64,000 nucleotides of DNA from Octopus sinensis (lineage: Eukaryota): contig NC_043000.1 in assembly GCF_006345805.1 (NCBI RefSeq), positions 73,966,001 to 74,030,000 on the forward strand, in the 5' to 3' direction. Position numbers and translations under genes: made by a program. Below, piece by piece: positions 39,501 to 62,062 of the stretch. Numbering within the stretch: position 1 is the first letter of the stretch; the number at the start of each line of letters is the position of its first letter. The notes under the pieces are model-generated. The model did no database searches, was not told the origin of the DNA, and was given only the letters and a program-made list of their open reading frames with translations.

Positions 39501-41135
39501 TTTTAATAATACATGAATACATATATACTGGTTTGTACTTATAATATGTGTGTAACCGTAATTATTTCTTCTTATTTATTTTATCACATTTTAACTTAAG
39601 TATTTACAATATATTAATTTTTAAAAATTTCTGTGATGTTCTTATATACGATTGCATTAGTACTTCCCCATGTTGATATTATTTAATGCCTAATCTAGTA
39701 TATTATGGCATTGAATTTATTAAGTAAAAAAGAGATATATTTATAATATATAAATTAATATATATTTTATAACTTAGCGTACTTGGAATCATAACAAACT
39801 TACGGTAAATCTAATAACCGTATGTTTACTATGCAATAAACCGGGTTATAAATTTTAAGTTACCAGTGAAATAGTATCTTACATCGTAACATACTGATAT
39901 TTAAAAATATATATATATCTTTAAAATAAATATTTTATGGAAATGCATGAGTGGATCTTTTTTGTTATTTGAGGCATAGTTATAATTTTGAAAGACTAAA
40001 TGGCAGCATAGTTGCTCCCCTATTTGTTTATCTATGTGCTAGTTGTTGCTTGTGGTTATGTATGTGTATAAGTGTATGTGTGTGTGTATACATATAATTA
40101 TGTATGTATGTGCGATTGATCTGTGTGAATATGTGTGAATATTGGCGTTCCTTGACTAACTAACTGTAAAATTTCTTTTGTGATTTAAATTTCAAACTAC
40201 TAGCCAATCGAATTAATCTAAATAATCATTACCTAGTGGTCAGAATTTCTAAACTCATAGTTAGTTCGATCTTGAAAGGATGGACTTGGTGCAAACATAA
40301 CTGTATCTATTATTATTATTATTATTATAATTATTATTAATATTAATAGTAATTTTTATTGACTTTTATAGCTTTATAATTTTATGAACTGAACCATGGT
40401 TTTAATTATTATTTTTCATCTCCCTATGTGTTAGTTTTTTAAAACTATTAGCCAAATGTATAATAACTGTGCTTATTAATATTAATATATACACTGATAT
40501 ATATTGTTTTATTGTTTTGTTTACCTTGCATTATTGTACCAATGAGTATTATATTATATAAGTGTAGCATTATGAAGTTTATGCATAAGTTTTTATATTT
40601 TACATTTTTATATTTTTATATTTATATGTATATGGAAAAATAATTTTTTCAAAATTATAGCAAATTTAATTCTCTGAAGAGGCCGTGGGGCATCCTTGTT
40701 AATGCCTCATTTATACCTGCCTTCATGGCTTATAGGTTAAATGATGTATGACTGCCCTTGCTGCCGAAACAGCTGTCAGATATGATTTAATTACATATTA
40801 TATTTGAAATTTTACACTTATATCTCTTTGTCTATTTACATTTACTGTATATTTTGTATAATGCCTTTACTGATATGTAATGGTGTAATAAAGTATTGAT
40901 TGGGTATCATCTGATAGTTGATGTTTTATTGATTTAAGTTTGTTTCTCCATTTTCTAATTTTGTAGTATTAATTTACGGTAATATTATTACCTTTACCCA
41001 TATAATACAATAGATGAACTGATTGTTTGGCAATTTTAACATCTATGTATTAGTCTTGTTGGGTACCTATCTAGCAGTATATTGGATATATGTTATCCCA
41101 TGGTGGGTTGAATTTTCAACCCCTATCTCATTTTA
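36558..41135 (+). mobile_element. 5'-truncated Naiad-like Penelope element with a long 3' UTR and hammerhead
   Basis: FDITMGSPDSAEVTDLVG...GGLYRDD...NYLDV, Asn-rich linker, CVFGNQCLRKEVVYQCTV...VYIGAT (GIY-YIG). Coding region ends at ~38678. Confidence 0.88.
40668..40783 (+). ncRNA. Type I hammerhead ribozyme with an expanded stem II
   Basis: TCT-CTGAAGA-GGC...(~80 nt)...GCC-GAAA-CAGCTG-TC-AGA. Intact core, palindromic stem III, GUC triplet. Confidence 0.82.
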
Positions 41136-41354
41136 TAATATATATATATATTATATATATATATATATATTATATATATATATATTATATATATATAATA
41201 TATATATATACATATATATATATACATATATATATCTATATATACATATATATATAATATAATATATATCTACATATATATATCTATATATATACATATA
41301 TATTATACATATATATATATACATGTATATATATACATATATATATATATATAC

Positions 41355-41389
<35 letters not shown>

Positions 41390-41483
41390 ATATATATACA
41401 TATATATATATACATATATATATATACATATATACATATATATATATCCATATATATATATACATATATATATACATATATAC

Positions 41484-41560
<77 letters not shown>

Positions 41561-41635
41561 CATATATATATGTATATATACATATATATATACATATATA
41601 TATAATACATATATATATATATACATATATATATA

Positions 41636-41690
<55 letters not shown>

Positions 41691-41768
41691 TATAATATAT
41701 ATATATATATATAAAATTATATATATACATATATATATATATAAAAAATATATATATATATATATCTA

Positions 41769-41812
<44 letters not shown>

Positions 41813-41830
41813 GACATATATATATATATA

Positions 41831-41861
<31 letters not shown>

Positions 41862-41901
41862 AAAATATAATTATATATATATATATACATATAATATATA
41901 C

Positions 41902-41977
<76 letters not shown>

Positions 41978-41978
41978 C

Positions 41979-42027
<49 letters not shown>

Positions 42028-42396
42028 TATATATATATATAATATAATATATATATATATACATATATATTATATACATATATATATCTATATATATCCA
42101 TATATATATAATATAATTATATATTATCTCTATTATACATATATATATATATACAATATATATATATACGTATATATATACATATATATATATACATATA
42201 TATATATACATATATATATATATACATATATAATATATACATATATATATATATATATACATATATATAACATATATATATATACATATATATATATATA
42301 CATATATATATACATATATATATATACATATATATATATATACATATAATATATATATACATATATATATATATATACCCATATAATAATATATAC

Positions 42397-42445
<49 letters not shown>

Positions 42446-42744
42446 ATAAATTATATATATATATATATATATACGTATATATATACATATATATATATAC
42501 ATATATATATATAATATATATATATACATATATATATATACATATATATATATAATATAGATTACATATTATATAAATACATATATATAATATAATATAT
42601 ACATATATATATAGATATATACATATATATATATATATTATATACATATATATTACATATATATATATATATATATAATAATATATATACATATAACATA
42701 TATATATACATATATATATATATATACATAATATATATATATAC

Positions 42745-42775
<31 letters not shown>

Positions 42776-42848
42776 CATTATATATATATATAAAATAAAT
42801 ATATATATATTATATAATATATTATATATACATATATATAATATATAC

Positions 42849-42887
<39 letters not shown>

Positions 42888-42898
42888 ATATATATATA

Positions 42899-42953
<55 letters not shown>
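41136..42953. repeat. ~1.8-kb imperfect (TA)n/(TACA) tract
   Basis: Seen directly. Confidence 0.97.
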
Positions 42954-44759: not shown

Positions 44760-46310
44760 ATGACAATTATTCGGCAGCCATGATAAAACTCCGAGTTTCG
44801 GATGTCGGGGCGGAAACCCACGCCGCCATCTCTTCAGTTACCCAGCCATTGAAAAAAATGCTATGAAAATGACCGTTAAACAAAGAAAAATTACTGTGTG
44901 ATTGACCGTTATTAAGACAAAAGAGCTATTAGGATGACTGCTAAGTGAGGGGAGGGAGTAAATGTATGGGAGTAAAAATGTTCATAGTATTCGCGTAAAC
45001 GCACATGTCCATACCTACACATGCGTGCCTGCACATCAACGTACATGCGCCTATAAGTATATACTCATCCACCCTCACTTGAAACACACACATGCTCACC
45101 CACACATTCGCCAAAAAAATATATACATACCCACATACACGCTCACGCACACACACACGTCCACAAAAAAGGTTCATGCCCACGTCTATATACGCACATG
45201 CACAAGAAAAACAGGACTAAAGTCAAAATACAGAAAAATGTGTAAAAAAAGTGTAAAAAGTAAGCAATAAGAGTAAAACTTGTCTATATACGCACAAACT
45301 CGTATGCACGCACACACATACGTCTATATACGCGCATACCCGCACACGTCTATATACGCGCACACGCGCGCGCGCAAGAGAAAAAAAAGGTACACGTCTA
45401 TATACGCAGATGCAGAAGAAAAAACAGGGCTAAAAGCAAAATATAGAAAAATGTGTAAAAGAATGTGTAAAAAATATGTGATATGAGTAAAGCACGTCTA
45501 TATACGCGCATACTCACATGCATGCACACACACACACGTCTATATATGCACATACACGCACACAAGCACACATCCACACGCGTACACAAAAGATTCCATA
45601 TACACGTCTATATACACTCAGGGAAAATGCAGGGTGGAAGGTAGAATACAGAAAAAATATATGTAAAAAATATATGAGCAATAAACCTACAAAACAATAT
45701 CTCTTATAAATATGTAAAAAATATATAAATATATATATATAATATATAAGAAATATAAGTAAAAAGTATACATCAGGAAAAGTCCAAAACCATCATTTAT
45801 GAAGCCACTGTGGACTCTATATCCACTAAGGACACGGTTTCGACGAAGAAATACGTGGGCCTTACAAAGGTTCAATAATCACACCTTGAGCTTCAGGCAC
45901 TGGGATAAAAGGTAAACGACCAAATCATCCAGTCATATATGGTCCTTGAAAGATAAAGGTGTCAATTACAACATCCATTGGGAAATCTTAGCCAACTTTA
46001 AGCCTTACACCAACGGCAGTGGAAAATGCGGTCTTTGTGATGTGGAAAGATGGCTCATCTGGAAAAGCAGCTTAGACCCCCACCACATGTCTAAATTCAA
46101 AAACTAAACTTTTCGAAAGATGTCCATGTGTGGCTAAATATTTGTTACATTTTTGGTCCCCCACAGAGATTACAGATAGGACTTGCTATCTAAATTGTGT
46201 CCACGTACAAGCTTTTTTATCTCTCTATACTTTTTACTTATATATTTTATATCTATATTTTTATATATTTTTTACATATTTATAGAGATATTACGTTTAT
46301 ATATTTGTTT
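44760..46310. mobile_element. Naiad-like PLE 3' fragment (+ strand, ~45790-46310) fused head-to-head with an inverted 3' UTR/pLTR (- strand, ~44760-45760)
   Basis: KKYVGLT..RFNNHTLSFRHW...WEIL...KPYTNGSGKCGLC, homologous to 1200-1530. Segment 45695-45755 is an inverted copy of 46235-46292. Hammerhead on the minus strand. Confidence 0.72.
44782..44842 (-). ncRNA. Type I hammerhead ribozyme motif
   Basis: Minus strand reads GGTAA-CTGAAGA-GATG...CATCC-GAAA-CTC G GAG-TT-TTATC. Confidence 0.75.
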
Positions 46311-46314
46311 TGCA

Positions 46315-46751
46315 AGATTTTTGATGTGAAATCGTGTGTTGAAACAGATATTGTTGTATTTAGGAATGGTCATTTTGCCAGTTTAGCCAATAAAAACACA
46401 TGCACTATACATTTGGTGTTACTTTGCTTCAGAGTTATTCATTTTTTACATTAATCTTAATCTTATTTCGGCCAGAGTTCTGTCGTCACACTCCTGTGAC
46501 CTCATCAGTGGTCCTTTGCTTTCTTCTTTCTTATTTGTGTCTCTCCTTACTAACGGTCAGCCATCTTGTATTTTGTATTCTTATTGTATGTGTCTTCATT
46601 TGCGCATGCATATACCTCTATGTGTGTCTATGTTTAGTTAGTATGTGTGTGGGGAGAGGGGAAGTGTCTGTAATATTTGTATCTCCTGTTTATATAAGTT
46701 CGTGTAATTTGTTTTTGTTTATTTTTATTTTGTTCACGTGTTTACATTTAC

Positions 46752-48162: not shown

Positions 48163-49290
48163 TGTGTAATGATAGCACATGTGTCTGTGTGTGTGTGGTT
48201 GTGGCTGTTTATCTATAGTATCATTTAAGGTCATAGGAAGAATTTATGGTAAAAATTTTGGTAGAAGTTGTGTTTACCTACACATGTGCGTAGGGGAATG
48301 GTCAGTAGAAGGTACTAGTAGTTTGAAGTATGTATGTGAGTGTGTATGTATATGTAGTGTGTGTGTTTTATTTTCAGTGTGTGTGTGTATGCGTAGGGGT
48401 TGTGTGTGTGTGGAGTAATTGTACTTTACTTTATGTATGTGTGGAGTAACTGTACTTTACTTTGTGTATGTGTGTGTGTGCTTGTATGTGCGTATGTGTG
48501 TGTACATGTATGTATAATTGTGTGAGTGTATGTATGTGTGCTGTGTGTGTATGGGAGGTATGTATAGGTTCATTTGCCTGTGCGTGTGTATATACACGTG
48601 TGTGCGTGTGAGTGTATGTGCGTGTGTACATGTCTGAGTATGTGCATGTGTATTTTGTGTGTGTGAACGAGGGGTTGTATAGGGGATATAGGTGCGTTTT
48701 TTGTGCGTGTAGTTATGTATGCGTATGTGGGTGTATATACGTGTATGCGTGGGGTTGTGAGTGTTAGGTATGTGTGCGCATATGTGTGTACGCGTGTGTG
48801 TATGTGTCTATATATGTATGCATATGTGTGTGTGCGTGAATGCATATATTGTGTGTGTATGTATATGTATGTGTATGCGTGGGTTGTGTGGGGAGTTGTG
48901 TGTGGGCTTTGTGTAGGCATATGTGTGCGTATCTGTGTGTATGTGTGTGCTTGTGTGCGTGTGCTTACGTGCGTGTATGTGCGTGTGTGTTTGTGCTCAT
49001 GTTCGTATAATTGTGTGCATCTGTATAAGTATTGTGTGTTGGAGGTATATGTGCGAACCTGTGCTTATGTGTGCATGTACGTGTGTATATGTGTGTGCGT
49101 GTATTATGTGCATATGTATGTGCGTGTGTGCATGTGTGTATGTGCGTGCATGTGTATATGTGTGTGTGAATGTGGAGATGTGTGTCGGATTATGTGTGCA
49201 TTTTGTTGCTGTATGCGCGTGTGCTTGAGTATGTGTCTGTAGGTGGTTGTGTGTACGTTTATGTGTGTGTATAATGGTTTGTATGTTTGT
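48080..49290. repeat. (TG)n/(TGTA)n low-complexity tract
   Basis: Seen directly. Confidence 0.93.
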
Positions 49291-50056
49291 GGGGCTGGTG
49301 GGGAAGAGAAGGTGCTACAGACCAGAAGATCGCGTAGGTTCCGGGCGCGTTTAAAGGAGGACAAGGGTGGGTTGGGGAAAATGGGGCAGGTGGTGGGATC
49401 GAGCTGGAGATGACGGAAGGCCCGTAGTATCCTCCGACGAAGGGGTAGAGTAGAGAGGTGGAAAAGGAGGAAAGAGTGTTGGTGAGGGGAAGGAGAAAGG
49501 GCGGTGGTGCGATCCATTCGACGAGTGCGGGCAAGGGCGTTTTGGACAAGGGTTGAGGGGTATCCTCGATGCCTAAACAGGCGGGCCAGGTACTGGGACT
49601 GGGTCTCAAAATCCTGGTCCCGACTGCACAAGCGTTGGAGGCGGAGGAACTGGGAGTAGGAGGTGGCCCGTTTGGTGTGGGAGGGATGGGAGGAGGAGAA
49701 TTTGAGATGGAGGTGGGAATCTGTGGGTTTGAAGAAGGTGGAGGTGGTGAGAGAGTGGGAGGGGTGGTCAATGGTAAGAGAGATATGAAGGAAGTTAACA
49801 AAGGTGTCAGAGATAGTAGAAGTGAATTGGAGAGAAGGGTGGAAGTTAGAGAGGAAAGAGATGAAGTGACAGAATTGTTCACAGGAGAGGGAGATGGCAC
49901 CTATACAGTCGTCTATGTAGTGACCGTATAGCTCTGAGGTCGGCCCGGAGAATTGGGAGAATGCTTGGGCCTCAATGTGGTCAACAAAGAGGTTGGCGAA
50001 ATTGGGGCCCATTCTTGTTCCCATCGTGACCCAAACACTAGTTGAATATTATATTA

Positions 50057-50510: not shown

Positions 50511-52880
50511 GTGATATGGAGGTCAGTTGAAAAAAAGTGCTATGACCCATTTTGTTGGCTTGTAGTCGGAGAGTCTGGAAAAAAAATTATTGCGCTTTGT
50601 TCTGTTATTTTCTGGAGAGATTAATGGGTTTGGAAGAGACCTCTGACCCTTTTCCGGTCAGGGAAAGTTTAAGAAACCCCCCTTTAAAATGCGACGCGCT
50701 GGGTTAGTTTGGCAGTTCTGCCTGAGACAGTGAGATGGCAACAGGGCAGTTTGGCTGTTCTGCCTGAGACAGCAAAAGGGCCGGAAGAGACAGTCAGCTG
50801 GCAAGGTGGTGATGGGAGAGGCTGGCAAGGTAGTGATGGGAGAGGCAGCAACAACGTTGAGAAAGACAGACAGTGAATGTGAGAGATGACAAGCGAGAGG
50901 TAAAGAAAGACATACACAGAGGATTGAGGAGGTGAGGGAGATTACGGCGTGATAGCATTGGCCATTGTAGTTGGAGCTCGTAACGGTATGTTTGTTTATG
51001 TAAATTGTGAACTATGTTGCAAAAAAAAAGAACATTGTGAAAAGAGTTGTTGAAGAGGAAGAAAAGAATTGTTAAAAAACAAAGAACTGTGTTAAAGAGA
51101 AAAAGAAAAGAAAGAGATTATAAAGAACATTGGGATCTTTTCCTTTTGATGGACGGAATTTTCTAGTTAACTAAAAAATTTGAAACTTCGTATACTAGTA
51201 GAATGTGTCAAAAGAAAGCATTATTGTAAACAAAATTGAATGCAAAATTGTAATTTCTAAGTTTAACGTAGTTTAATGATTCGAATTTTAACCAATGAAA
51301 TCCTACCATTTGAGCTCCAACCATTTTCTGCATCTAAAAACTCACACACACACACGTCTTATTCATCCTTCTCTCTCTTCTGTCTTCTGCATGTGCTCTG
51401 CATGTGCTAGAAATAACAGCTATATCTCTTAAATCGATGAATTTCGTCGCCCAATAAAAATATTAACGATATTTTTTTAATATTTTCTTTATTTTTTTTC
51501 ACCGAAAAGGCTTCTCCCATGGTTTTGAAGGGCCAGAAACAACAAAAACAAAACAATAATATGCCTAAAGCGGTCTAGAGTTTGCGCGTGGAGTGTGAGT
51601 CGTATTGTAAAAATTTGCGAAATATGTTTTCAGAAAAGGATGCCCCAGTTTGTCGGAAACTGTGATATAAATTGGGAAAAAAATCCTCGACACCAGTGCA
51701 TAATTGGTACTTAATTTATCGACCCCGAAACGATGAAACATTGAACCCCGCTTCTGGTTTATTTACCTTTTGTGTAAATTTGTTGTGGCAAGGGGCAAAA
51801 CACAGAGGGGGCAAAGCATGAGATACAAAAGTATTAAGTCGATTCTATCGACCCCGAAACGATGAAACATTGACCCCCCTCCTTCTGGTTTATTTACCTT
51901 TTGTGTAAATTTGTTGCGGCAAGGGGCAACTCACGAACGTGTATGTATGCTTGTGTGCGTATGTGTGTGTATGTATATGTCCGTTTGTATGTGTGTGTAC
52001 GCTTATATATTAATTACTATGTGCTTGTGCAAATGTATATGCATGTGTTTGAGAGAGAGAGAGAGAGAGTGATAGAGAGAGAGAGTGACAGAGAGAGAGA
52101 GTGACAGAGAGAGAGAGGGTGTGTGTGTGTGTGTGTGCAAGTGTACGTGTGTATGTATCTGAATATGTGTGTGTGTATGTGTGTGTGTGTATGCGGCATG
52201 AGTCTGCTATGTTTGTTTATCAATATCGATAACGCAGCAAATGACTTGAGCTCAAATGCTCGGATTTCATTGGTTAAAATTCGAAGATGCTGGGATTTCA
52301 TTGGTTAAAATTCGAATCATTAGAAATTACAATTTTGTTTACAATAATGTTTTCTTTTGACACATTCTACCAGTATACGAAGTTTCAAATTGTTTAGTTA
52401 ACTAGAAAATTCCGTCCATCAAAAGGAAAAGATCCGAACATTGTGTTAAGGAAAGAGAAAGACTTTGATTTGAACTGTTTTGCCCTGAACATTTGTTTTG
52501 ATTGCTTCGGACGTTCTGTATCGTGCATGCCTTTGATTATTTTCGAACGACGTGTTATGTTTAAATGATTTTGTTGTTTTCTTTTTAATTCTGTTGCATG
52601 TTATTTTCTTCAATGTATCTGCTATGTTTCACATTGTATTTGATGTCGTAATAGTCGTATAAACTGTTCTTAAATGCAAGTTATCGCCTTCCGCCGTGTC
52701 TCTCTTCCTCCTGTTGTTGTTGTTATCTCCGGTCGCCGGTTCGAGTTCGCTGCCATCCCCCCCCCCACTACCGTTTTCTCTCTGTGTTGCGGATTCCCGT
52801 TCGACTGAGCTGGTCAATCGTCGTCGCTCGACTTAGTAGGGTCCCGGGTTCGAGTTTGAGCGACGGCAGGTTTCGTAACA
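50511..52880. mobile_element. Possible solo-LTR-like element interrupted by a TIR transposon
   Basis: Non-coding segment between TA runs, starting GTGATA and ending TCGTAACA (LTR-like TG...CA termini, left end imperfect). No PBS or PPT seen. Confidence 0.3.
51133..52435. mobile_element. Non-autonomous TIR DNA transposon, Merlin-like
   Basis: TIRs over 100 bp (GGATCTTTTCCTTTTGATGGACGGAA... / ...TTCCGTCCATCAAAAGGAAAAGATCC) and an exact 8-bp TSD GAACATTG at 51125-51132 and 52436-52443. Confidence 0.88.
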
Positions 52881-53739
52881 ATATATTTATATTAATGTGA
52901 CCCAGACACATAAAGCAGTTGAAGGTGAGGATGAGCTCTGCCAGGTGGAGAAGGCGGGGGTGTTGGGTGTGGGGTCAGGGTGACAGTCGAGGAAGTATTG
53001 GAGGGCTAAGAGACCGTCGTTGTGGGGAATACCTGTGTATAGGAATTTGATGTCCAAGGTGAGGAGGTGTGAGGGGCCGGGAGGGAAGGAAAAGGAATTG
53101 AAGAGGCGAACGGCGTGATTAGTGTCGTGTATGTGGGATGGGGGGCAGCAACTAGAGTGAACAGGATGCGGTCAAGTTATTTGGAAATGAGTTCGGTGGG
53201 ACAATTACAGGCAGAAACGATCGGGCAGCCAGGGTTGTTGGGTTTATGTATTTTGGGAAGGAAGTAGATGGTGGAAGTACAGCGTGTTTGGACGATGAGG
53301 TTGGTGGTGGGGGGGATATCAGAAGAGGAGATGAGGTCATGGATGGTGGAGGGCACTCGCTTTTGATAGGAGGTGGGGTCGGAGGGTAGGAGGTGATAGA
53401 AGAGGGATTTTGAAGTTGGCTGAGCACTTCCTCTCTGTATAGGTCTGTGCGCCACACCAACACTGCTCTACCTTTGCCTACCAGTTTGATGATAATGTTG
53501 TTGCAGCGACGGAAGTCGCCAAGGGCAATCAATTGAGCATGGGTGAGGTTGGCTTGGAGAGATTTTTTTTAAAAATTGAATCAGTTGATCAATGCATTGC
53601 AGTCGTGCACGAACAAGTCTAGGCTACTGAACTGGCCTGGAGGCAGTGTCCAGTTGGATGGGCGGCACCCCAGCTCCCAAAAACAATCCCAATTGTGTAG
53701 ATGTGTGGAAATGTATATATATATATACATGTATGTATG

Positions 53740-53771
<32 letters not shown>

Positions 53772-54038
53772 TAGCAATTAAGGACAACTACTTAATAAGG
53801 AAAACTTAACAAGAAATTGTCAGGTAGATAGCGTAAAAACCTCATAAGAGAAAAAATTTCGAAAATAATTATTTCTTATTGAACATATTAATTTATATAT
53901 AGAGAGCATTATACATACATGCCAGGAGGCATTCTACATACACGCCATACGCTAAGAGGGACAATCAGTCATTTCTACCAAAAATATTACTAATCCCACC
54001 GAATGCAATTTTTCAAAGAAAGACATTTAAAAATATAT

Positions 54039-56005
54039 AGACCTGTATCACAGTGATTTCATACTTACGTAATCATCAGCAGCCTGAATATACTATAAAT
54101 AAACAACGACCCTGCTTCGCTTAAGCCGATCAGCTAACTGATCAACATCAACGAAGCACATGGGTGGGTTTATATACTATATCCGGATGAATGGCAAACT
54201 TTTACGAATTGCATTTCGGGAGAGGAAAAGTTTTTTCGGAATAAAAATTTAGCAATTAAGGACAACTACTTAATAAGGAAAACTTAACAAGAAATTGTCA
54301 GGTAGATAGCGTAAAAACCTCATAAGAGAAAAAATTTCGAAAATAATTATTTCTTATTGAACATATTAATTTATATATAGAGGGCATTATACATACATGC
54401 CAGGAGGCATTCTACATACACGCCATACGCTAAGAGGGACAATCAGTCATTTCTACCAAAAATATTACTAATCCCACCGAATGCAATTTTTCAAAGAAAG
54501 ACATTTAAAAATATATAGACCTGTATCACAGTGATTTCATACTAACGTAATCATCAGCAGGCCTGAATATACTATAAATAAACAACGACCCTGCTTCGCT
54601 TAAGCCGATCAGCTAACTGATCAACATCAACGAAGCACATGGGTGGGTTTATATATACTATATCCGGATGAATGGCAAACTTTTACGAATTGCATTTCGG
54701 GAGAGGAAAAGTTTTTTCGGAATAAAAATTAGCAATTAAGGACAACTACTTAATAAGGAAAACTTAACAAGAAATTGTCAGGTAGATAGCGTAAAAACCT
54801 CATAAGAGAAAAAATTTCGAAAATAATTATTTCTTATTGAACATATTAATTTATATATAGAGGGCATTATACATACATGCCAGGAGGCATTCTACATACA
54901 CGCCATACGCTAAGAGGGACAATCAGTCATTTCTACCAAAAATATTACTATCCCACCGAATGCAATTTTTCAAAGAAAGACATTTAAAAATATATAGACC
55001 TGTATCACAGTGATTTCATACTTACGTAATCATCAGCAGGCCTGAATATACTATAAATAAACAACGACCCTGCTTCGCTTAAGCCGATCAGCTAACTGAT
55101 CAACATCAACGAAGCACATGGGTGGGTTTATATATACTATATCCGGATGAATGGCAAACTTTTACGAATTGCATTTCGGGAGAGGAAAAGTTTTTTCGGA
55201 ATAAAAATTTAGCAATTAAGGACAACTACTTAATAAGGAAAACTTAACAAGAAATTGTCAGGTAGATAGCGTAAAAACCTCATAAGAGAAAAAATTTCGA
55301 AAATAATTATTTCTTATTGAACATATTAATTTATATATAGAGGGCATTATACATACATGCCAGGAGGCATTCTACATACACGCCATACGCTAAGAGGGAC
55401 AATCAGTCATTTCTACCAAAAATATTACTAATCCCACCGAATGCAATTTTTCAAAGAAAGACATTTAAAAATATATAGACCTGTATCACAGTGATTTCAT
55501 ACTTACGTAATCATCAGCAGGCCTGAATATACTATAAATAAACAACGACCCTGCTTCGCTTAAGCCGATCAGCTAACTGATCAACATCAACGAAGCACAT
55601 GGGTGGGTTTATATATACTATATCCGGATGAATGGCAAACTTTTACGAATTGCATTTCGGGAGAGGAAAAGTTTTTTCGGAATAAAAATTTAGCAATTAA
55701 GGACAACTACTTAATAAGGAAAACTTAACAAGAAATTGTCAGGTAGATAGCGTAAAAACCTCATAAGAGAAAAAATTTCGAAAATAATTATTTCTTATTG
55801 AACATATTAATTTATATATAGAGGGCATTATACATACATGCCAGGAGGCATTCTACATACACGCCATACGCTAAGAGGGACAATCAGTCATTTCTACCAA
55901 AAATATTACTAATCCCACCGAATGCAATTTTTCAAAGAAAGACATTTAAAAATATATAGACCTGTATCACAGTGATTTCATACTTACGTAATCATCAGCA
56001 GGCCT
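54039..56005 (-). ncRNA. Five hammerhead ribozyme copies (54039-54085, 54517-54564, 54996-55043, 55477-55524, 55958-56005)
   Basis: Reverse complement of the motif at 56611-56658. Copies 1 and 2 carry single-base variants. Confidence 0.85.
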
Positions 56006-56610
56006 GAATATACTATAAATAAACAACGACCCTGCTTCGCTTAAGCCGATCAGCTAACTGATCAACATCAACGAAGCACATGGGTGGGTTTATATATACT
56101 ATATCCGGATGAATGGCAAACTTTTACGAATTGCATTTCGGGAGAGGAAAAGTATGAAATCACTGTGATACAGGTCTATATATTTTTAAATGTCTTTCTT
56201 TGAAAAATTGCATTCGGTGGGATTAGTAATATTTTTGGTAGAAATGACTGATTGTCCCTCTTAGCGTATGGCGTGTATGTAGAATGCCTCCTGGCATGTA
56301 TGTATAATGCCCTCTATATATAAATTAATATGTTCAATAAGAAATAATTATTTTCGAAATTTTTTCTCTTATGAGGTTTTTACGCTATCTACCTGACAAT
56401 TTCTTGTTAAGTTTTCCTTATTAAGTAGTTGTCCTTAATTGCTAAATTTTTATTCCGAAAAAACTTTTCCTCTCCCGAAATGCAATTCGTAAAAGTTTGC
56501 CATTCATCCGGATATAGTATATATAAACCCACCCATGTGCTTCGTTGATGTTGATCAGTTAGCTGATCGGCTTAAGCGAAGCAGGGTCGTTGTTTATTTA
56601 TAGTATATTC

Positions 56611-56658
56611 AGGCCTGCTGATGATTACGTAAGTATGAAATCACTGTGATACAGGTCT
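56611..56658 (+). ncRNA. Type I hammerhead ribozyme
   Basis: AGGCCTG-CTGATGA-TTAC GTAA GTAT-GAAA-TCAC T GTGA-TA-CAGGTCT: 7-bp stem I, GNRA-capped stem II, quasi-palindromic stem III, AUA triplet. Confidence 0.88.
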
Positions 56659-57091
56659 ATATATTTTTAAATGTCTTTCTTTGAAAAATTGCATTCGGTG
56701 GGATTAGTAATATTTTTGGTAGAAATGACTGATTGTCCCTCTTAGCGTATGGCGTGTATGTAGAATGCCTCCTGGCATGTATGTATAATGCCCTCTATAT
56801 ATAAATTAATATGTTCAATAAGAAATAATTATTTTCGAAATTTTTTCTCTTATGAGGTTTTTACGCTATCTACCTGACAATTTCTTGTTAAGTTTTCCTT
56901 ATTAAGTAGTTGTCCTTAATTGCTAAATTTTTATTCCGAAAAAACTTTTCCTCTCCCGAAATGCAATTCGTAAAAGTTTGCCATTCATCCGGATATAGTA
57001 TATATAAACCCACCCATGTGCTTCGTTGATGTTGATCAGTTAGCTGATCGGCTTAAGCGAAGCAGGGTCGTTGTTTATTTATAGTATATTC

Positions 57092-57139
57092 AGGCCTGCT
57101 GATGATTACGTAAGTATGAAATCACTGTGATACAGGTCT
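57092..57139 (+). ncRNA. Type I hammerhead ribozyme
   Basis: Identical to 56611-56658. Confidence 0.88.
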
Positions 57140-57572
57140 ATATATTTTTAAATGTCTTTCTTTGAAAAATTGCATTCGGTGGGATTAGTAATATTTTTGG
57201 TAGAAATGACTGATTGTCCCTCTTAGCGTATGGCGTGTATGTAGAATGCCTCCTGGCATGTATGTATAATGCCCTCTATATATAAATTAATATGTTCAAT
57301 AAGAAATAATTATTTTCGAAATTTTTTCTCTTATGAGGTTTTTACGCTATCTACCTGACAATTTCTTGTTAAGTTTTCCTTATTAAGTAGTTGTCCTTAA
57401 TTGCTAAATTTTTATTCCGAAAAAACTTTTCCTCTCCCGAAATGCAATTCGTAAAAGTTTGCCATTCATCCGGATATAGTATATATAAACCCACCCATGT
57501 GCTTCGTTGATGTTGATCAGTTAGCTGATCGGCTTAAGCGAAGCAGGGTCGTTGTTTATTTATAGTATATTC

Positions 57573-57620
57573 AGGCCTGCTGATGATTACGTAAGTATGA
57601 AATCACTGTGATACAGGTCT
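57573..57620 (+). ncRNA. Type I hammerhead ribozyme
   Basis: Identical to 56611-56658. Confidence 0.88.
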
Positions 57621-57767
57621 ATATATTTTTAAATGTCTTTCTTTGAAAAATTGCATTCGGTGGGATTAGTAATATTTTTGGTAGAAATGACTGATTGTCC
57701 CTCTTAGCGTATGGCGTGTATGTAGAATGCCTCCTGGCATGTATGTATAATGCCCTCTATATATAAA

Positions 57768-57834
<67 letters not shown>

Positions 57835-58529
57835 TGTTTATATATATACTGTATATATTATATATATATACTTTATCGCCACGTGTTCCTTGACCTCTCT
57901 CTCTAACTAACCCTATCTCTCTCCCTGTTTCTCTATGTCACCCTCTTCCCATAACCATCATCGCCATATCTCTCTCCCTAGGTTTCTCTATGCCCCCCCC
58001 TTCCATAACCATCATCGCCATATATAAAAGAGCGATCGCATTATCGTTAACCCCACTCGCTTCAAAATATCTAAAGACGAAATACGCACAGATCATGAAT
58101 GGCTAAAGCTAAGTGAATTGTTCAACCTCGCTACGACTACCTTCTATCTTGCACTTATCTTTATTCTTTCACTATTCTTCAATTTCCATCTCATTGTATT
58201 GTTCCTCATTCTTTCAGTATTCCCTCATTACCCTGTCTAGCTCAAACATTTTTTTTTTTTTTTTTTCGTTTAGTCTTGTCTCCCGGTTCACAGCCACTCT
58301 GATTTTTCAAACCCATTTGCTAGCTCCGATTTAACAGAACCTTACTAACCTACGGTGCACCCGCCCTCCCGCCCCCACCACACATGCCGGAAGTTCCTAT
58401 TCTTTGCCATTCCGGGGTTGCTTCCCATGAAGACTGCAAATGCTCTCACCATCCCTACCCCTCCCTACCCCTAGTCTCGACCTATGTAAGGTAATGTTCA
58501 TACAGTGCAAAATATGAAAGGCTAGTGTT

Positions 58530-61500
58530 ATGCAGGTTGTACTGAAGGCTACTTTACTACTTCATTTCTTGCACATGAATTCTGCCAAATGCGAGCTTTC
58601 TTTTCAGGTACACGAAGCTACTGTCCACCGTCCCAGGGTCTCTAGAGCCCATGCCTCCCACACCCTCAGGGTTGGCACCCTCAGCGTTGGCACTCTGAAA
58701 GGTAGGTCTGGTGAGATAGTCGAGATGCTTGAACGGAGATGTGTGCATATATGTTGCATGCAAGAAATAAGGTGGAGAGGAGGATCAGCTAGGTTCCTCA
58801 CAGGCAAGGAACGCAGGTACAAGATTTTCTGGGCAGGGAACACTGACGGGGTTGGTGGCGTGGGTATACTTATCGCTGAGAAATGGGTAGATAAAGTAAT
58901 TGAGGTAATCAGAGTATGTGACAGAATACTTAAGATTAGATTAGTGCTTCATCATAGTTTAGCAACCATTATATCAGCCTATGCTCCTCAGTCGGGGCTA
59001 CCCGATGGACAGAAAGACCGATTCTATGACACTCTACTGCAGACTACCTCGTTGACGAACGACAGAGACCTTATCTTTGTGGCTGGTGACTTCAATGGTC
59101 ACGTTGGACGACATGCTGGGGGCTTCCATGGCGTACATGGAGGCTATGGCTATGGCTCCCGAAACGAGGAGGGAACCAGGCTGCTGGAGTTCTGCGATGC
59201 AAATAATCTTATGATTTGCAACACTAACTTCAGGAAACCTACCAGCCACCTAGTCACTTACCGATCGGGCCAACATACCAGCCAAATTGACTACATCCTT
59301 GCAAGGCAAAGGGAGAGATGGCTGCTTATAAATGCCAAAACCTTCCCAGGGGAAGAATGTACCCCACAACATAGACTGGTAGTTAGTGACTTTAGGATCA
59401 GGACTAGGAGGACAACCAGAAGACGACCAATATGGAGAAGAAGGATCTGGAAGCTTAAAGATCCTGCAAATGGACAGAGATTTAGAGACATATTACTTGA
59501 AGCCTCTGACGAAGTAGAAGGGGATAGAGCATCACAGGGGGTAGAAGACAGCTGGACGTTTCTAAGGGACAACCTGCTGAGAGCCACTGACCAGATCTGT
59601 GGATGGTGCAAAGTCCCCTCTCGACCTAGAATAACGTGGTGGTGGAACAATATTGTAGACAGGGCTATTAGAGAAAAGAGACAGGCTTGGAAGGTCTGGA
59701 AAAATGGGGGTAGCAGGGAATTGTATCAGACTGCCAAAAGAGAAGCTAAGAGACAGGTTTATTTAGCCAGAGGGGAAGCAGATAAGAAAAAATTTGCCAA
59801 TGTTCTGCGCCGTGAGGACCAAAGACTGGAGGTGTTTCGCGTTGCAAGACAGTGTGTGAGAGAGAATCGTGATGTGGTAGGAGAGAAGTGTGTTCGCATG
59901 GAAGATGGTTCACTTGCGCTAAATGAGGATGCAAAGAGAGAGGTTTGGCGATGCCACTATGAAAGTTTGCTGAATAAAGAAAATGAATGGGATAAAGAGA
60001 GTCTGCCGAATGTTGACCCAACAGAGGGACCAGCTATCCGAGTTGATAGTTCCGTGGTAGCTAAGGCAATTAGAAGCATGAAGAGAGGAAAAGACCCAAG
60101 CCCATCAGCAATCACTGCAGAGATGCTCAAAATGTCTGGTAGTGTCGGCTATAGCCTAGTCACCTATATAGTTAATCAGGTGGATACACAAAGGAGCCAT
60201 ACCCAATGACTGGTGTAGCAGCATAATAGTCAACTGCTACAAAGGTAAAGGTGACGCCCTAGATACAAATAACTACAGAGGTATCAAGCTGTTGGATCAG
60301 GTGATGAAGGTTACGGAGAGGGTCATAGCCCAACTAATTAGAGAGAGAGTTAGTTTAGATGAGATGCAGTTTGGGTTTGTGCCAGGGAAAAGTACTACTG
60401 ATGCTATATTCCTGGTAAGGCATCTGCAGGAGAAATACCTAGCCAAAGATAAGTCCCTGTACCTGGCTTTTGTTGACATGGAGAAAGCCTTCGACAGGGT
60501 CCCCCGATCCCTTATCTGGTGGGCAATGAGGAAACTAGGGATAGATGAATGGTTAGTGAGAGCTGTGCAGGCCATGTATAGGGACGCTGCTAGTAGGGTG
60601 AGGGTTGGAAACGAGTACAGTGAAGAATTCCGGGTAGAGGTAGGGGTCCACCAAGGCTCAGTACTCAGCCCCCTCCTATTTATCATAGTCCTCCAGGCAA
60701 TAACGGAGGAATTCAAGACAGGATGCCCTTGGGAGCTCCTCTATGCTGATGACCTTGCTCTAATTGCTGAGTCGCTATCAGAACTGGAGGAGAAGTTTCA
60801 GGTGTGGAAACAAGGATTAGAATCGAAGGGCCTCAGAGTCAATCTAGCTAAAACCAAAGTCGTAATCAGTAGGAAGGTAGACAAATCACAAACGCCTTCA
60901 GGTAGATGGCCCTGCTCGATCTGTAGAAAAGGTGTAGGTAGAAACTCTATAAGATGCACCAAGTGTAAGCTATGGACACATAAGAGGTGCAGCAATGTCA
61001 AAGGAAGGCTAACTAGGAAAATAGTTTTTGTCTGTGGCAGATGCTCAGGAACAATAAACACTGAAAATGCTCTGAGACCAACTTCCGTCACTTTCCAGGG
61101 AGAAAAACTAGAAATAGTTGATAGTTTCCGTTACCTAGGTGACCAAGTCAGCAGCGGGGGCGGGTGTGCTGAAAGTGTAACTGCTAGAGTAAGAATAGCT
61201 TGGGCAAAGTTCAGAGAGCTCTTACCTCTGCTGGTGACAAAAGGCCTCTCGCACAGAGTGAAAAGCAGACTGTATGATGCGTGTGTACGAACAGCCATGC
61301 TACATGGCAGTGAAACTTGGGCCGTGACTGCTGAGGATATGCGTAAGCTCGCAAGAAATGAAGCCAGTATGCTCCGATGGATGTGTAATGTCAGTGTTCA
61401 TAATCGACAGAGTGTAAGTACCTTGAGAGAAAAGCTGGACCTAAGAAGCATCAGTTGTGGTGTGCAAGAGAGACGATTGCGCTGGTATGGTCATGTGGCG

Positions 61501-61698
61501 AGAATGGATGAAGATAGTGGTGTGAAAAAGTCCCACACCCTAGCGGTTGAGGGAACCTGTGGAAGAGGCAGACCCAGGAAAACCTGGGACGAGGTGGTGA
61601 AGCACGACCTTCGAACTTTAGGTCTCACTGAGGAAATGACTAGAGACCGAGTCCTCTGGAAGTGTGCTGTGCGCGAGAAGACCCGGCAGGACAAGTGA
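58530..61698 (+). CDS. RTE ORF: APE endonuclease, RT and PHD-like finger, with one +1 frameshift at ~60182
   Basis: LRVGTLSVGTL, QEIRW, SAYAPQ, GDFNGH, SQIDYIL, QHRLV (APE). QFGF, FVDMEKAFD, GVHQGSVLSP, YADD, FRYLG (RT). CAGGTGGATAC versus CAGGTGATAC in the 4951 copy shows one extra G. Confidence 0.92.
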
Positions 61699-61772
61699 GT
61701 CCATAACCCGTGGCCTTCTACTTGGGATGGAACCAGCCTACGTATGCATACCTTCCCTTCTTGGGACACAAA

Positions 61773-62062
61773 ACTCTACTTGTGAAGACCTGTTGAGGCA
61801 AGTGAGGATCAGAATCGAAATCGATCAATGGAAATTGCAGATGTGTTACCAGTGCCGGTGGCATGTCGATACTCTACTTGTGAAGACCCGTTGAGGCAAG
61901 TGAGGATCAGAATGGAAATCGATCAATGGAAATTGCAGATGTGTTACCAGTGCCGGTGGCATGTCGAAACTCTACTTGTGAAGACCCGTTGAGGCAAGTG
62001 AGGATCAGAATGGAAATCGATCAATGGAAATTGCAGATGTGTTACCAGTGCCGGTGGCATGT
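61773..62062 (+). repeat. 98-bp tandem triplication in the RTE 3' UTR
   Basis: Units start at 61773, 61871 and 61969. Confidence 0.95.

Follow-up and report, generated by a model that had tools for sequence, protein, structure and literature searches.

A 3996-bp element at positions 53772-57767 of the window (the whole 64,000-nt stretch of DNA analysed) consists of two tandem arrays of one 481-bp unit, joined head-to-head at a 4-nt microhomology and bordered by (TA)n on either side. A single young insertion into a (TA)n microsatellite is the likely source of the locus. Its repeat unit resembles a non-LTR retrozyme with a type I hammerhead and a dimer-type stem III. The inversion probably arose during integration of the Penelope-like element (PLE) type, a statement that covers both double priming and fold-back of a single cDNA. 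There is about an even chance that the element is a PLE-mobilised, non-autonomous, hammerhead-carrying Penelope derivative for which both cut strands primed reverse transcription and the cDNA ends were joined at AAGT.

Organisation of the element and its junction

According to the analysis in the Tandem Repeats Finder program, two arrays with a period of 481 are located at 53772-56153 (5.0 copies) and 56150-57775 (3.4 copies), each with a 99% match. The arrays are reverse complements of one another and overlap by exactly the AAGT of the junction; one base beyond AAGT on either side, the two orientations differ. The coordinates of the features are given in Table 1.

Table 1. Features of the inverted array and its surroundings (positions in the window)
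Feature	Position	Strand	Remarks
Left (TA)n microsatellite	53714..53773	.	30 TA copies; likely target site
Left arm	53772..56153	-	4.95 tandem 481-bp copies; ribozyme-sense on minus strand
Other left-arm hammerheads	core starts 55517, 55036, 54557, 54079	-	core and stems read
Hammerhead of innermost left unit	55958..56005	-	core and stems read
Spacer between innermost arms	55986..56149	.	164 bp; contains the long hairpin of the unit
Unused 6-bp fold-back partner of the last six bases of the left arm	56120..56125	+	22-nt loop
Inversion junction	56150..56153	.	4-nt microhomology AAGT fitting both orientations
Right arm	56150..57767	+	3.36 copies; ribozyme-sense on plus strand
Type I hammerhead motif	56611..56658	+	predicted cut after 56651
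Identical hammerhead copies	57092-57139, 57573-57620	+	same as 56611..56658
Right outer end	57758..57767	+	the unit's own TATATATA (r145-152) plus AA
Right (TA)n microsatellite	57758..57870	.	followed by sequence matchless elsewhere in the window

Positions in the unit are numbered on the RNA, r1 being the first base 3' of the predicted hammerhead cut. The left arm (2382 bp) has its outer end at r274 and its inner end at r293-297; the right arm (1618 bp) starts at r461-465, inside loop II / stem II of the hammerhead, and finishes at r154. The hammerhead-sense strands are directed outward from the centre, i.e., the arrangement is head-to-head: each array runs out into (TA)n with an RNA-sense 3' end, and two 5'-truncated ends meet at the centre. 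The outer ends are 120 nt apart in the unit (r274 versus r154). The TATATATA sequence is the tied longest TA run of the unit, and the right boundary with the (TA)n flank is ambiguous by ~10 nt. No target-site duplication is readable inside (TA)n. Comparison with the 64-kb window yielded self-matches only for the flanks (57871-58500 and 52900-53713), and no match for the unit elsewhere except short AT-rich stretches.

The original prediction had included a strand switch at AAGT, a spacer of 164 bp and an outward ribozyme sense, all of which are seen in the sequence. Its 1.6-kb palindrome, with arms at 54370-55985 and 56150-57767, is right for the innermost register, which is one of several; the left array continues for another ~600 bp to 53772. 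The innermost arms, starting at 55985 and 56150, are 100% complementary for 1036 nt, after which the first 1-nt indel occurs. The switch had also been placed inside the ribozyme, in stem II just before GAAA. This holds for the right arm, which enters at loop II / the 3' strand of stem II directly before GAAA, but the end of the left arm lies outside the motif. With two breakpoints placed at random, the 48-nt motif would be hit by one or both in 19% of cases, and a special role for a junction inside the ribozyme was rejected; among seven other junctions of the family none breaks in the ribozyme, where detection is limited.

For this unit, a microhomology of at least 4 nt has a probability of 0.024 per random breakpoint pair and 0.006 per distinct junction. 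As single-stranded DNA, the region 55975-56165, which includes 11 bp of the arms, folds compactly (z = -5.35). In a 179-nt context, the best terminal-register pairing probability (0.056) belongs to the unused 6-bp partner, the value for the used AAGT register being 0.032; in 254- and 454-nt contexts the latter is ~0.

Of the nine complete or partial copies of the unit, six (L4, L5, and R1-R4) have the same sequence, apart from a few terminal bases at the right outer end. The six internal differences are all found in the three left-most units (P ~0.002), and four of them are deletions in short runs. Because the differences are clustered on the left and are mostly short-run deletions, they suggest that consensus quality is uneven across the locus. 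In particular, the right arm carries neither the substitution at ~54544 nor two 1-nt deletions found in the matching part of the left arm. The six differences may be consensus errors and were not used for the assessment of the mechanism. Minority alleles of the family occur in all units of both arms at positions 56036, 56197, and 56087, where the allele of the window accounts for 2-32%, 21-34%, and at most 0.7-14% of depth, respectively; therefore, both arms derive from one sequence variant.

The 481-bp unit and its predicted hammerhead

The unit has a GC content of 0.33, and no stop-free frame of at least 60 aa lies wholly within the array. The minimum free energy of the circular monomer is -124.2 kcal/mol versus -91.1 +/- 5.3 for 60 shuffled sequences (z = -6.2). 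When 11 listed family variants were placed on this fold, six were unpaired, three changed A-U to G.U and kept the pair, two were pair-breaking, and none was compensatory; covariation backing for the fold is weak.

The motif at 56611..56658 comprises a 7-bp stem I, CUGAUGA, a 3-bp stem II, GAAA, and a palindromic stem III with a 1-nt loop. The core elements CUGANGA, GAAA, and NUH together with stems I-III are present in each unit. In agreement with the original prediction, complete motifs were found on both strands, eight in total (three on the plus strand and five on the minus strand), those of each strand lying only downstream of its antisense arm. Two of the five minus-strand motifs have a 1-nt change, namely a loop II change in the copy at 54557 and a 1-nt stem I deletion in the copy at 54079. 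A read-through transcript would fold into a hairpin of at least 1.6 kb, in which most ribozymes would likely be masked by the antisense arm, which is made first; long dsRNA as a substrate for siRNA formation or A-to-I editing is a possibility put forward in the original prediction.

The motif is likely a hammerhead according to the reading of its core and stems, without Rfam support (no hits at gathering; 10 unrelated weak hits, E 1.5-6.7), and self-cutting is predicted. Exact hammerhead patterns gave no matches in metagenome and viral contigs. The 10.1-11.1 pair closing stem II is U.U in every copy of the window versus G10.1-C11.1 in the conserved form. Because U.U replaces this conserved pair, the copies of the window, whose activity is a prediction only, may be weak cutters; G at 10.1 (a G.U pair) was found in four contigs of run X14 (see below). 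For a single hammerhead copy, the minimum free energy fold (-10.3) differs from the active one (-8.3). Two hammerhead copies co-fold via stem III at -28.3 kcal/mol, with both cores left open. A dimer mode with stem III is described for metazoan hammerheads in PMC4209133, and bioRxiv 10.64898/2026.07.22.740005 reports cleavage of one of nine Xenopus retrozyme dimers.

The unit resembles non-LTR retrozymes in being a non-coding, strongly folded tandem monomer with one type I hammerhead and a GC content of ~33%, present as several units per locus in a dispersed high-copy family. Metazoan units of this class measure ~170-400 nt according to PMC7229834 and 51-972 bp according to bioRxiv 10.64898/2026.07.22.740005; the 481-nt unit exceeds the former range and lies inside the latter. 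It differs from the known retrozymes in that the array is inverted mid-way. Expression as linear and circular monomer RNA is another mark of the class. In the available text of PMC7229834, inverted arrays are not mentioned (the word "inverted" occurs 0 times), and in that of bioRxiv 10.64898/2026.07.22.740005 "inverted" occurs in a reference title only and "inversion" 0 times. In Schistosoma mansoni, opposite-strand hammerheads 100-700 bp apart are described in PLE-related repeats (PMC4209133); these share the opposite-strand arrangement but are pairs of minimal motifs, not multimeric retrozyme arms. The available part of a paper on Octopus vulgaris repeats does not mention ribozymes or retrozymes, and 10.1101/2024.12.14.628481 and PMC8490949 have little bearing on the question. 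An inverted multimeric array of retrozymes was described neither in the two main retrozyme papers, judged by word counts, nor in the literature listings searched, which include few subscription papers.

PLE-like fragments are located near the element in the window. No link between them and the unit was found, and Pfam gave no match for any of the four fragments.

Junctions and ends of the family in public sequencing runs

The stretch 55986-56462, which contains every base of the unit once with the inversion built in, was used as a probe. In 20 of the 24 listed runs (11 studies, 8 organism labels), 50% or more of the 44 words sampled from it are present. Among the runs listed, none is on record as RNA, and six presumed to be RNA contain 0.55-0.80 of the words. 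The best runs contain 0.93 of the words, and ~2.6 words are expected across the junction; therefore, the source animal is perhaps absent from the listed runs. None of the 32 contig pieces shown of 7222 bridges 56150-56153, a gap that is uninformative and neither supports nor contradicts the junction.

Contigs from 4 of the 24 listed runs (X1, X6, X12, and X14) were compared with the probe. The left part of the probe followed by the right part on one strand of a contig corresponds to a head-to-head junction, and the reverse order to a tail-to-tail one. Among 10 joint rows, seven were head-to-head, three were ordinary continuation of the array, and none was tail-to-tail (two-sided P = 0.016); the head-to-head junctions belonged to X1 (three), X6 (three), and X14 (one), with none in X12. 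A survey of the family for inversions, proposed together with the original prediction, thus yields seven further junctions of one polarity; in addition, an X14 loose end at 56345 represents an eighth head-to-head junction. The depths of the head-to-head junctions are 27-73 and alike within a run, and the summed family depth is mostly 10^4-10^6. We infer that these junctions are single germline loci in a family of thousands, depth not being copy number.

Inserted letters (2-10) are present at five of the seven junctions and 1-2 shared letters at the other two. One X1 junction terminates at a 5-bp hairpin with a 4-nt loop. In all seven, one breakpoint falls in each part of the probe, versus 45% expected of detectable junctions (P = 0.004), which indicates either that short-spacer inversions of the fold-back type are under-listed or that breakpoints cluster. 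Juxtaposition of breakpoint pairs in the folded unit is unsupported, their mean graph distance being 90-94 versus a null median of 70-72.

Loose ends running into (TA)n were four among the 24 rows shown of 141. A 3' end followed by (TA)n at 56444 (r274) was found in eight X1 contigs and is the exact left outer end of the element. Two X12 contigs run into (TA)n from a 3' end at r283, 9 nt from r274, and two others from X12 have a 3' end at r161 (56331), followed by an A-run/(TA)n and located 7 nt from the right end of the element at r154. The fourth is one 5' end (X1).

Origin of the inversion and its significance

The original prediction overlooked that this layout is the standard insertion signature of PLEs and that it recurs in the family. 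The traits described for PLEs include a bias toward (TA)n, an inverted copy with a truncated 5' end, and a tail on one side (PMC8557442; PMC8969392), which measures 30-40 nt (PMC8557442). Head-to-head is the commonest PLE arrangement and was ascribed to self-priming (PMC3846280). Purified PLE protein nicks AT-rich DNA and cuts and extends both strands (PMC11167929); therefore, priming from both strands is plausible. The same protein starts inside RNA without homology, and a dimer is predicted by a model (PMC11167929). With endonuclease-bearing PLEs (Penelope/Poseidon, Neptune, and Naiad), the element shares the combination of a tandem and a head-to-head inverted 5'-truncated copy, the (TA)n target, unequal outer ends, and a type I hammerhead with a palindromic stem III. 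It differs from them in having no ORF, an inverted part made up of 3.4 tandem units instead of a single truncated pLTR, a 120-nt asymmetry of the ends rather than 30-40 nt, and a 164-nt spacer with no palindrome at the junction.

Double priming would proceed as follows. A PLE RT/GIY-YIG protein acting in trans would nick both (TA)n strands; the left nick would prime cDNA synthesis at the internal start usual for the family (r274), and ~5 units would be copied from a circular or multimeric RNA. The right nick would prime in or just past the UA-rich r145-161, giving ~3.4 units of the same sequence variant, and the two cDNA 3' ends would anneal at the microhomology, followed by fill-in. The overall process would correspond to L1-style twin priming in a PLE setting, with a head-to-head inversion and one outer end 120 nt longer as the result; this longer end may be compared with the PLE "tail". 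Under twin priming, the outer end of the inverted segment is expected to show homology, and the inversion junction a short homology (PMC2912911). The element shares with 5'-inverted L1 copies (PMC2912911) two outer ends that would be target-primed and an inner join with short microhomology, but it lacks poly(A) as well as a target-site duplication that can be read, its segments do not abut on the RNA, and its arms overlap in sequence, the last because the template is repeated. No paper linking twin priming with Penelope was found by title and abstract.

Double priming is supported by the polarity of the family junctions (7 versus 0), by the coincidence of the left outer end with the recurrent family 3' end before (TA)n, and by the minority alleles in every unit, which point to one template. 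On the other hand, no autonomous PLE with this unit or hammerhead was found in the 64-kb window, and twin priming on a single RNA predicts adjoining ends, whereas r293-297 and r154 are ~140 nt apart modulo the unit. Moreover, the right end is only loosely recurrent (r161 in two contigs) and is equally well accounted for by end-joining onto (TA)n after fold-back, the 120-nt asymmetry exceeds the length of the PLE tail, and no target-site duplication is readable in (TA)n. The split of all seven junctions between the probe parts also counts against double priming. The closest alternative is an unlikely variant of the same PLE insertion, in which a single left-primed cDNA stalled after ~5 units, was self-primed by fold-back at AAGT/ACTT, served as its own template for 1.6 kb, and then became linked to the right (TA)n through the TATATATA of the unit. 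It is consistent with a right arm shorter than the left one, a microhomology above chance, the compact spacer, which makes fold-back physically possible, the small hairpin at the end of the X1 junction, and the self-priming put forward for PLE inversions (PMC3846280). Double priming is preferred to fold-back in cis in that the nearer 6-bp partner was bypassed for a register with a pairing probability of about 0.03 or less, and the family breakpoints are not juxtaposed in the fold, with insertions in 5/7 junctions. The left-arm substitution at ~54544 and the two 1-nt deletions missing from the right arm also speak against fold-back, with the reservation that they may be consensus errors. The tests of fold-back are unfavourable, not decisive. 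As for the original prediction of reverse transcription of multimeric or circular RNA, it agrees with the identical units, the common minority alleles, and the recurrent 3' end; the self-priming that it proposed is possible but not favoured. The data fit a circular and a linear multimeric template alike.

Three further explanations place the origin of the inversion outside a single PLE-type integration. An assembly artefact is improbable, whether it came from a long read that was chimeric or folded back or from the misjoining of two loci of a high-copy repeat. The confinement of the six differences to the three left-most units, with four short-run deletions, would suit it, but a fold-back read should mirror the entire left arm with its flank, whereas the right arm stops elsewhere in the unit and enters unique sequence. 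In addition, a 4-nt overlap is too short to seed an overlap misjoin, both ends of the element lie within (TA)n as expected of one target, and the same type of junction was seen at single-locus depth in three of the four runs. More improbable still is a tandem array that was inverted later at the DNA level (by template switching or break repair) or whose arms grew by unequal crossing-over. Polymerase-theta-type repair leaves short insertions and microhomology, and those of the family junctions fit it; local amplification of retrozyme arrays was also proposed (bioRxiv 10.64898/2026.07.22.740005). Such events should produce both polarities or paired junctions, whereas the count is 7:0 for head-to-head and the locus has a single junction; the two outer RNA-sense 3' ends at (TA)n and the near identity of the units likewise argue against them. 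Least probable, and hardly to be expected, are two independent insertions of the family placed back to back in one microsatellite: the family is abundant and adjoins (TA)n, but no remnant of (TA)n or flank is left at the junction, and the minority alleles are common to both arms.

Thus, double priming by a PLE-type enzyme is the preferred explanation, and the palindrome is an expected by-product of PLE biology. An extension of double priming, possible but doubtful, is that a PLE RT dimer rolls round retrozyme circles from both cut strands, so that the family would regularly yield head-to-head multimers. The literature already covers retrozymes, the PLE origin proposed for them, and the inversions of PLEs; their combination was not found in the retrozyme papers checked. 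The available literature leaves open which enzyme mobilises animal retrozymes and whether complete arrays are inserted or the units multiply at the site (PMC7229834; bioRxiv 10.64898/2026.07.22.740005), as well as how the tandem and inverted structures of PLEs originate (PMC8557442). A retrozyme family with the PLE inversion signature and with variants that mark the template bears on both questions and can be counted genome-wide. If true, rolling from both strands would prove directly from genomic sequence that retrozymes are mobilised by PLE enzymes in the form of ready-made multimers, and it would give a countable test of twin priming as the source of the long-unexplained PLE inversions. The locus offers a way into the mobilisation of retrozymes and the mechanism of PLE inversion.

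A second inversion junction near the same unit position

Contigs of a public sequencing run were found to contain the joint 56153 -> 56284 relative to window positions 55986-56462 (one unit with the inversion built in). The joint represents a different locus from the retrozyme, the head-to-head array of a 481-bp unit, and its antisense arm stops at r291-293, at most 2 nt from the left arm's inner end in the retrozyme (r-numbers are RNA positions in the unit, r1 being the first base after the predicted hammerhead cut). After the antisense arm, this locus contains a 10-nt piece that is antisense of r127-136, followed by a switch at a 5-bp hairpin. Among 7-8 junctions, a chance agreement of this kind would not be improbable; stalling near r293 is nevertheless possible.

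Features surrounding the retrozyme

The features annotated in the window are listed in the table below.

Features in the window outside the retrozyme
Feature	Position	Strand	Remarks
(TA)n array, very long	30684-32261		~800 copies
Scaffold gap	34650-34749		100 N
(TA)n array, very long	41134-42953		~940 copies
Type I hammerhead-like motif	44760-44850	minus	core start 44837; palindromic stem III, 1-nt loop
Minimal-hammerhead-like core	about 46460-46510	minus	stem II long; stem I not evident
RT-like reading frame, broken	49107-50048 + 52887-53568	minus	two pieces
Inverted repeat, MITE-like	51130-51238 + 52330-52438		109 nt, 96%; 1091 nt between copies
LINE	58518-61698	plus	endonuclease + RT domains, two frames
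98-bp tandem repeat	61771-62062		three copies, downstream of LINE

The type I motif shows no similarity to the 481-bp unit and is unrelated to the retrozyme's hammerhead; it probably represents a monomer or solo pLTR belonging to a different Penelope-like element (PLE)-type family. A long (TA)n lies ~20 nt beyond its end.

The two RT-like pieces gave no Pfam matches. Comparison of the frame with HTH_animal clusters in the ESM Atlas yielded a score of 0.97, with RVT_1 in 19% of the members of one cluster, and in its motifs the frame resembles a PLE. The ~2.86 kb separating them is bordered by a direct repeat with 12/13 identical positions (50026-50038, 52897-52909), which is likely a target-site duplication. 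The MITE-like inverted repeat is located within this insertion. The retrozyme's left end lies ~200 bp from the nearer RT-like piece.

Spread of the family

Among the runs listed, those under eight organism labels contained 0.55-0.93 of the sampled words of the family (relatives of the 481-bp unit), and the holders include runs with just 5-6 million letters of contigs. These values suggest that the family has a very high copy number and is conserved across related species.
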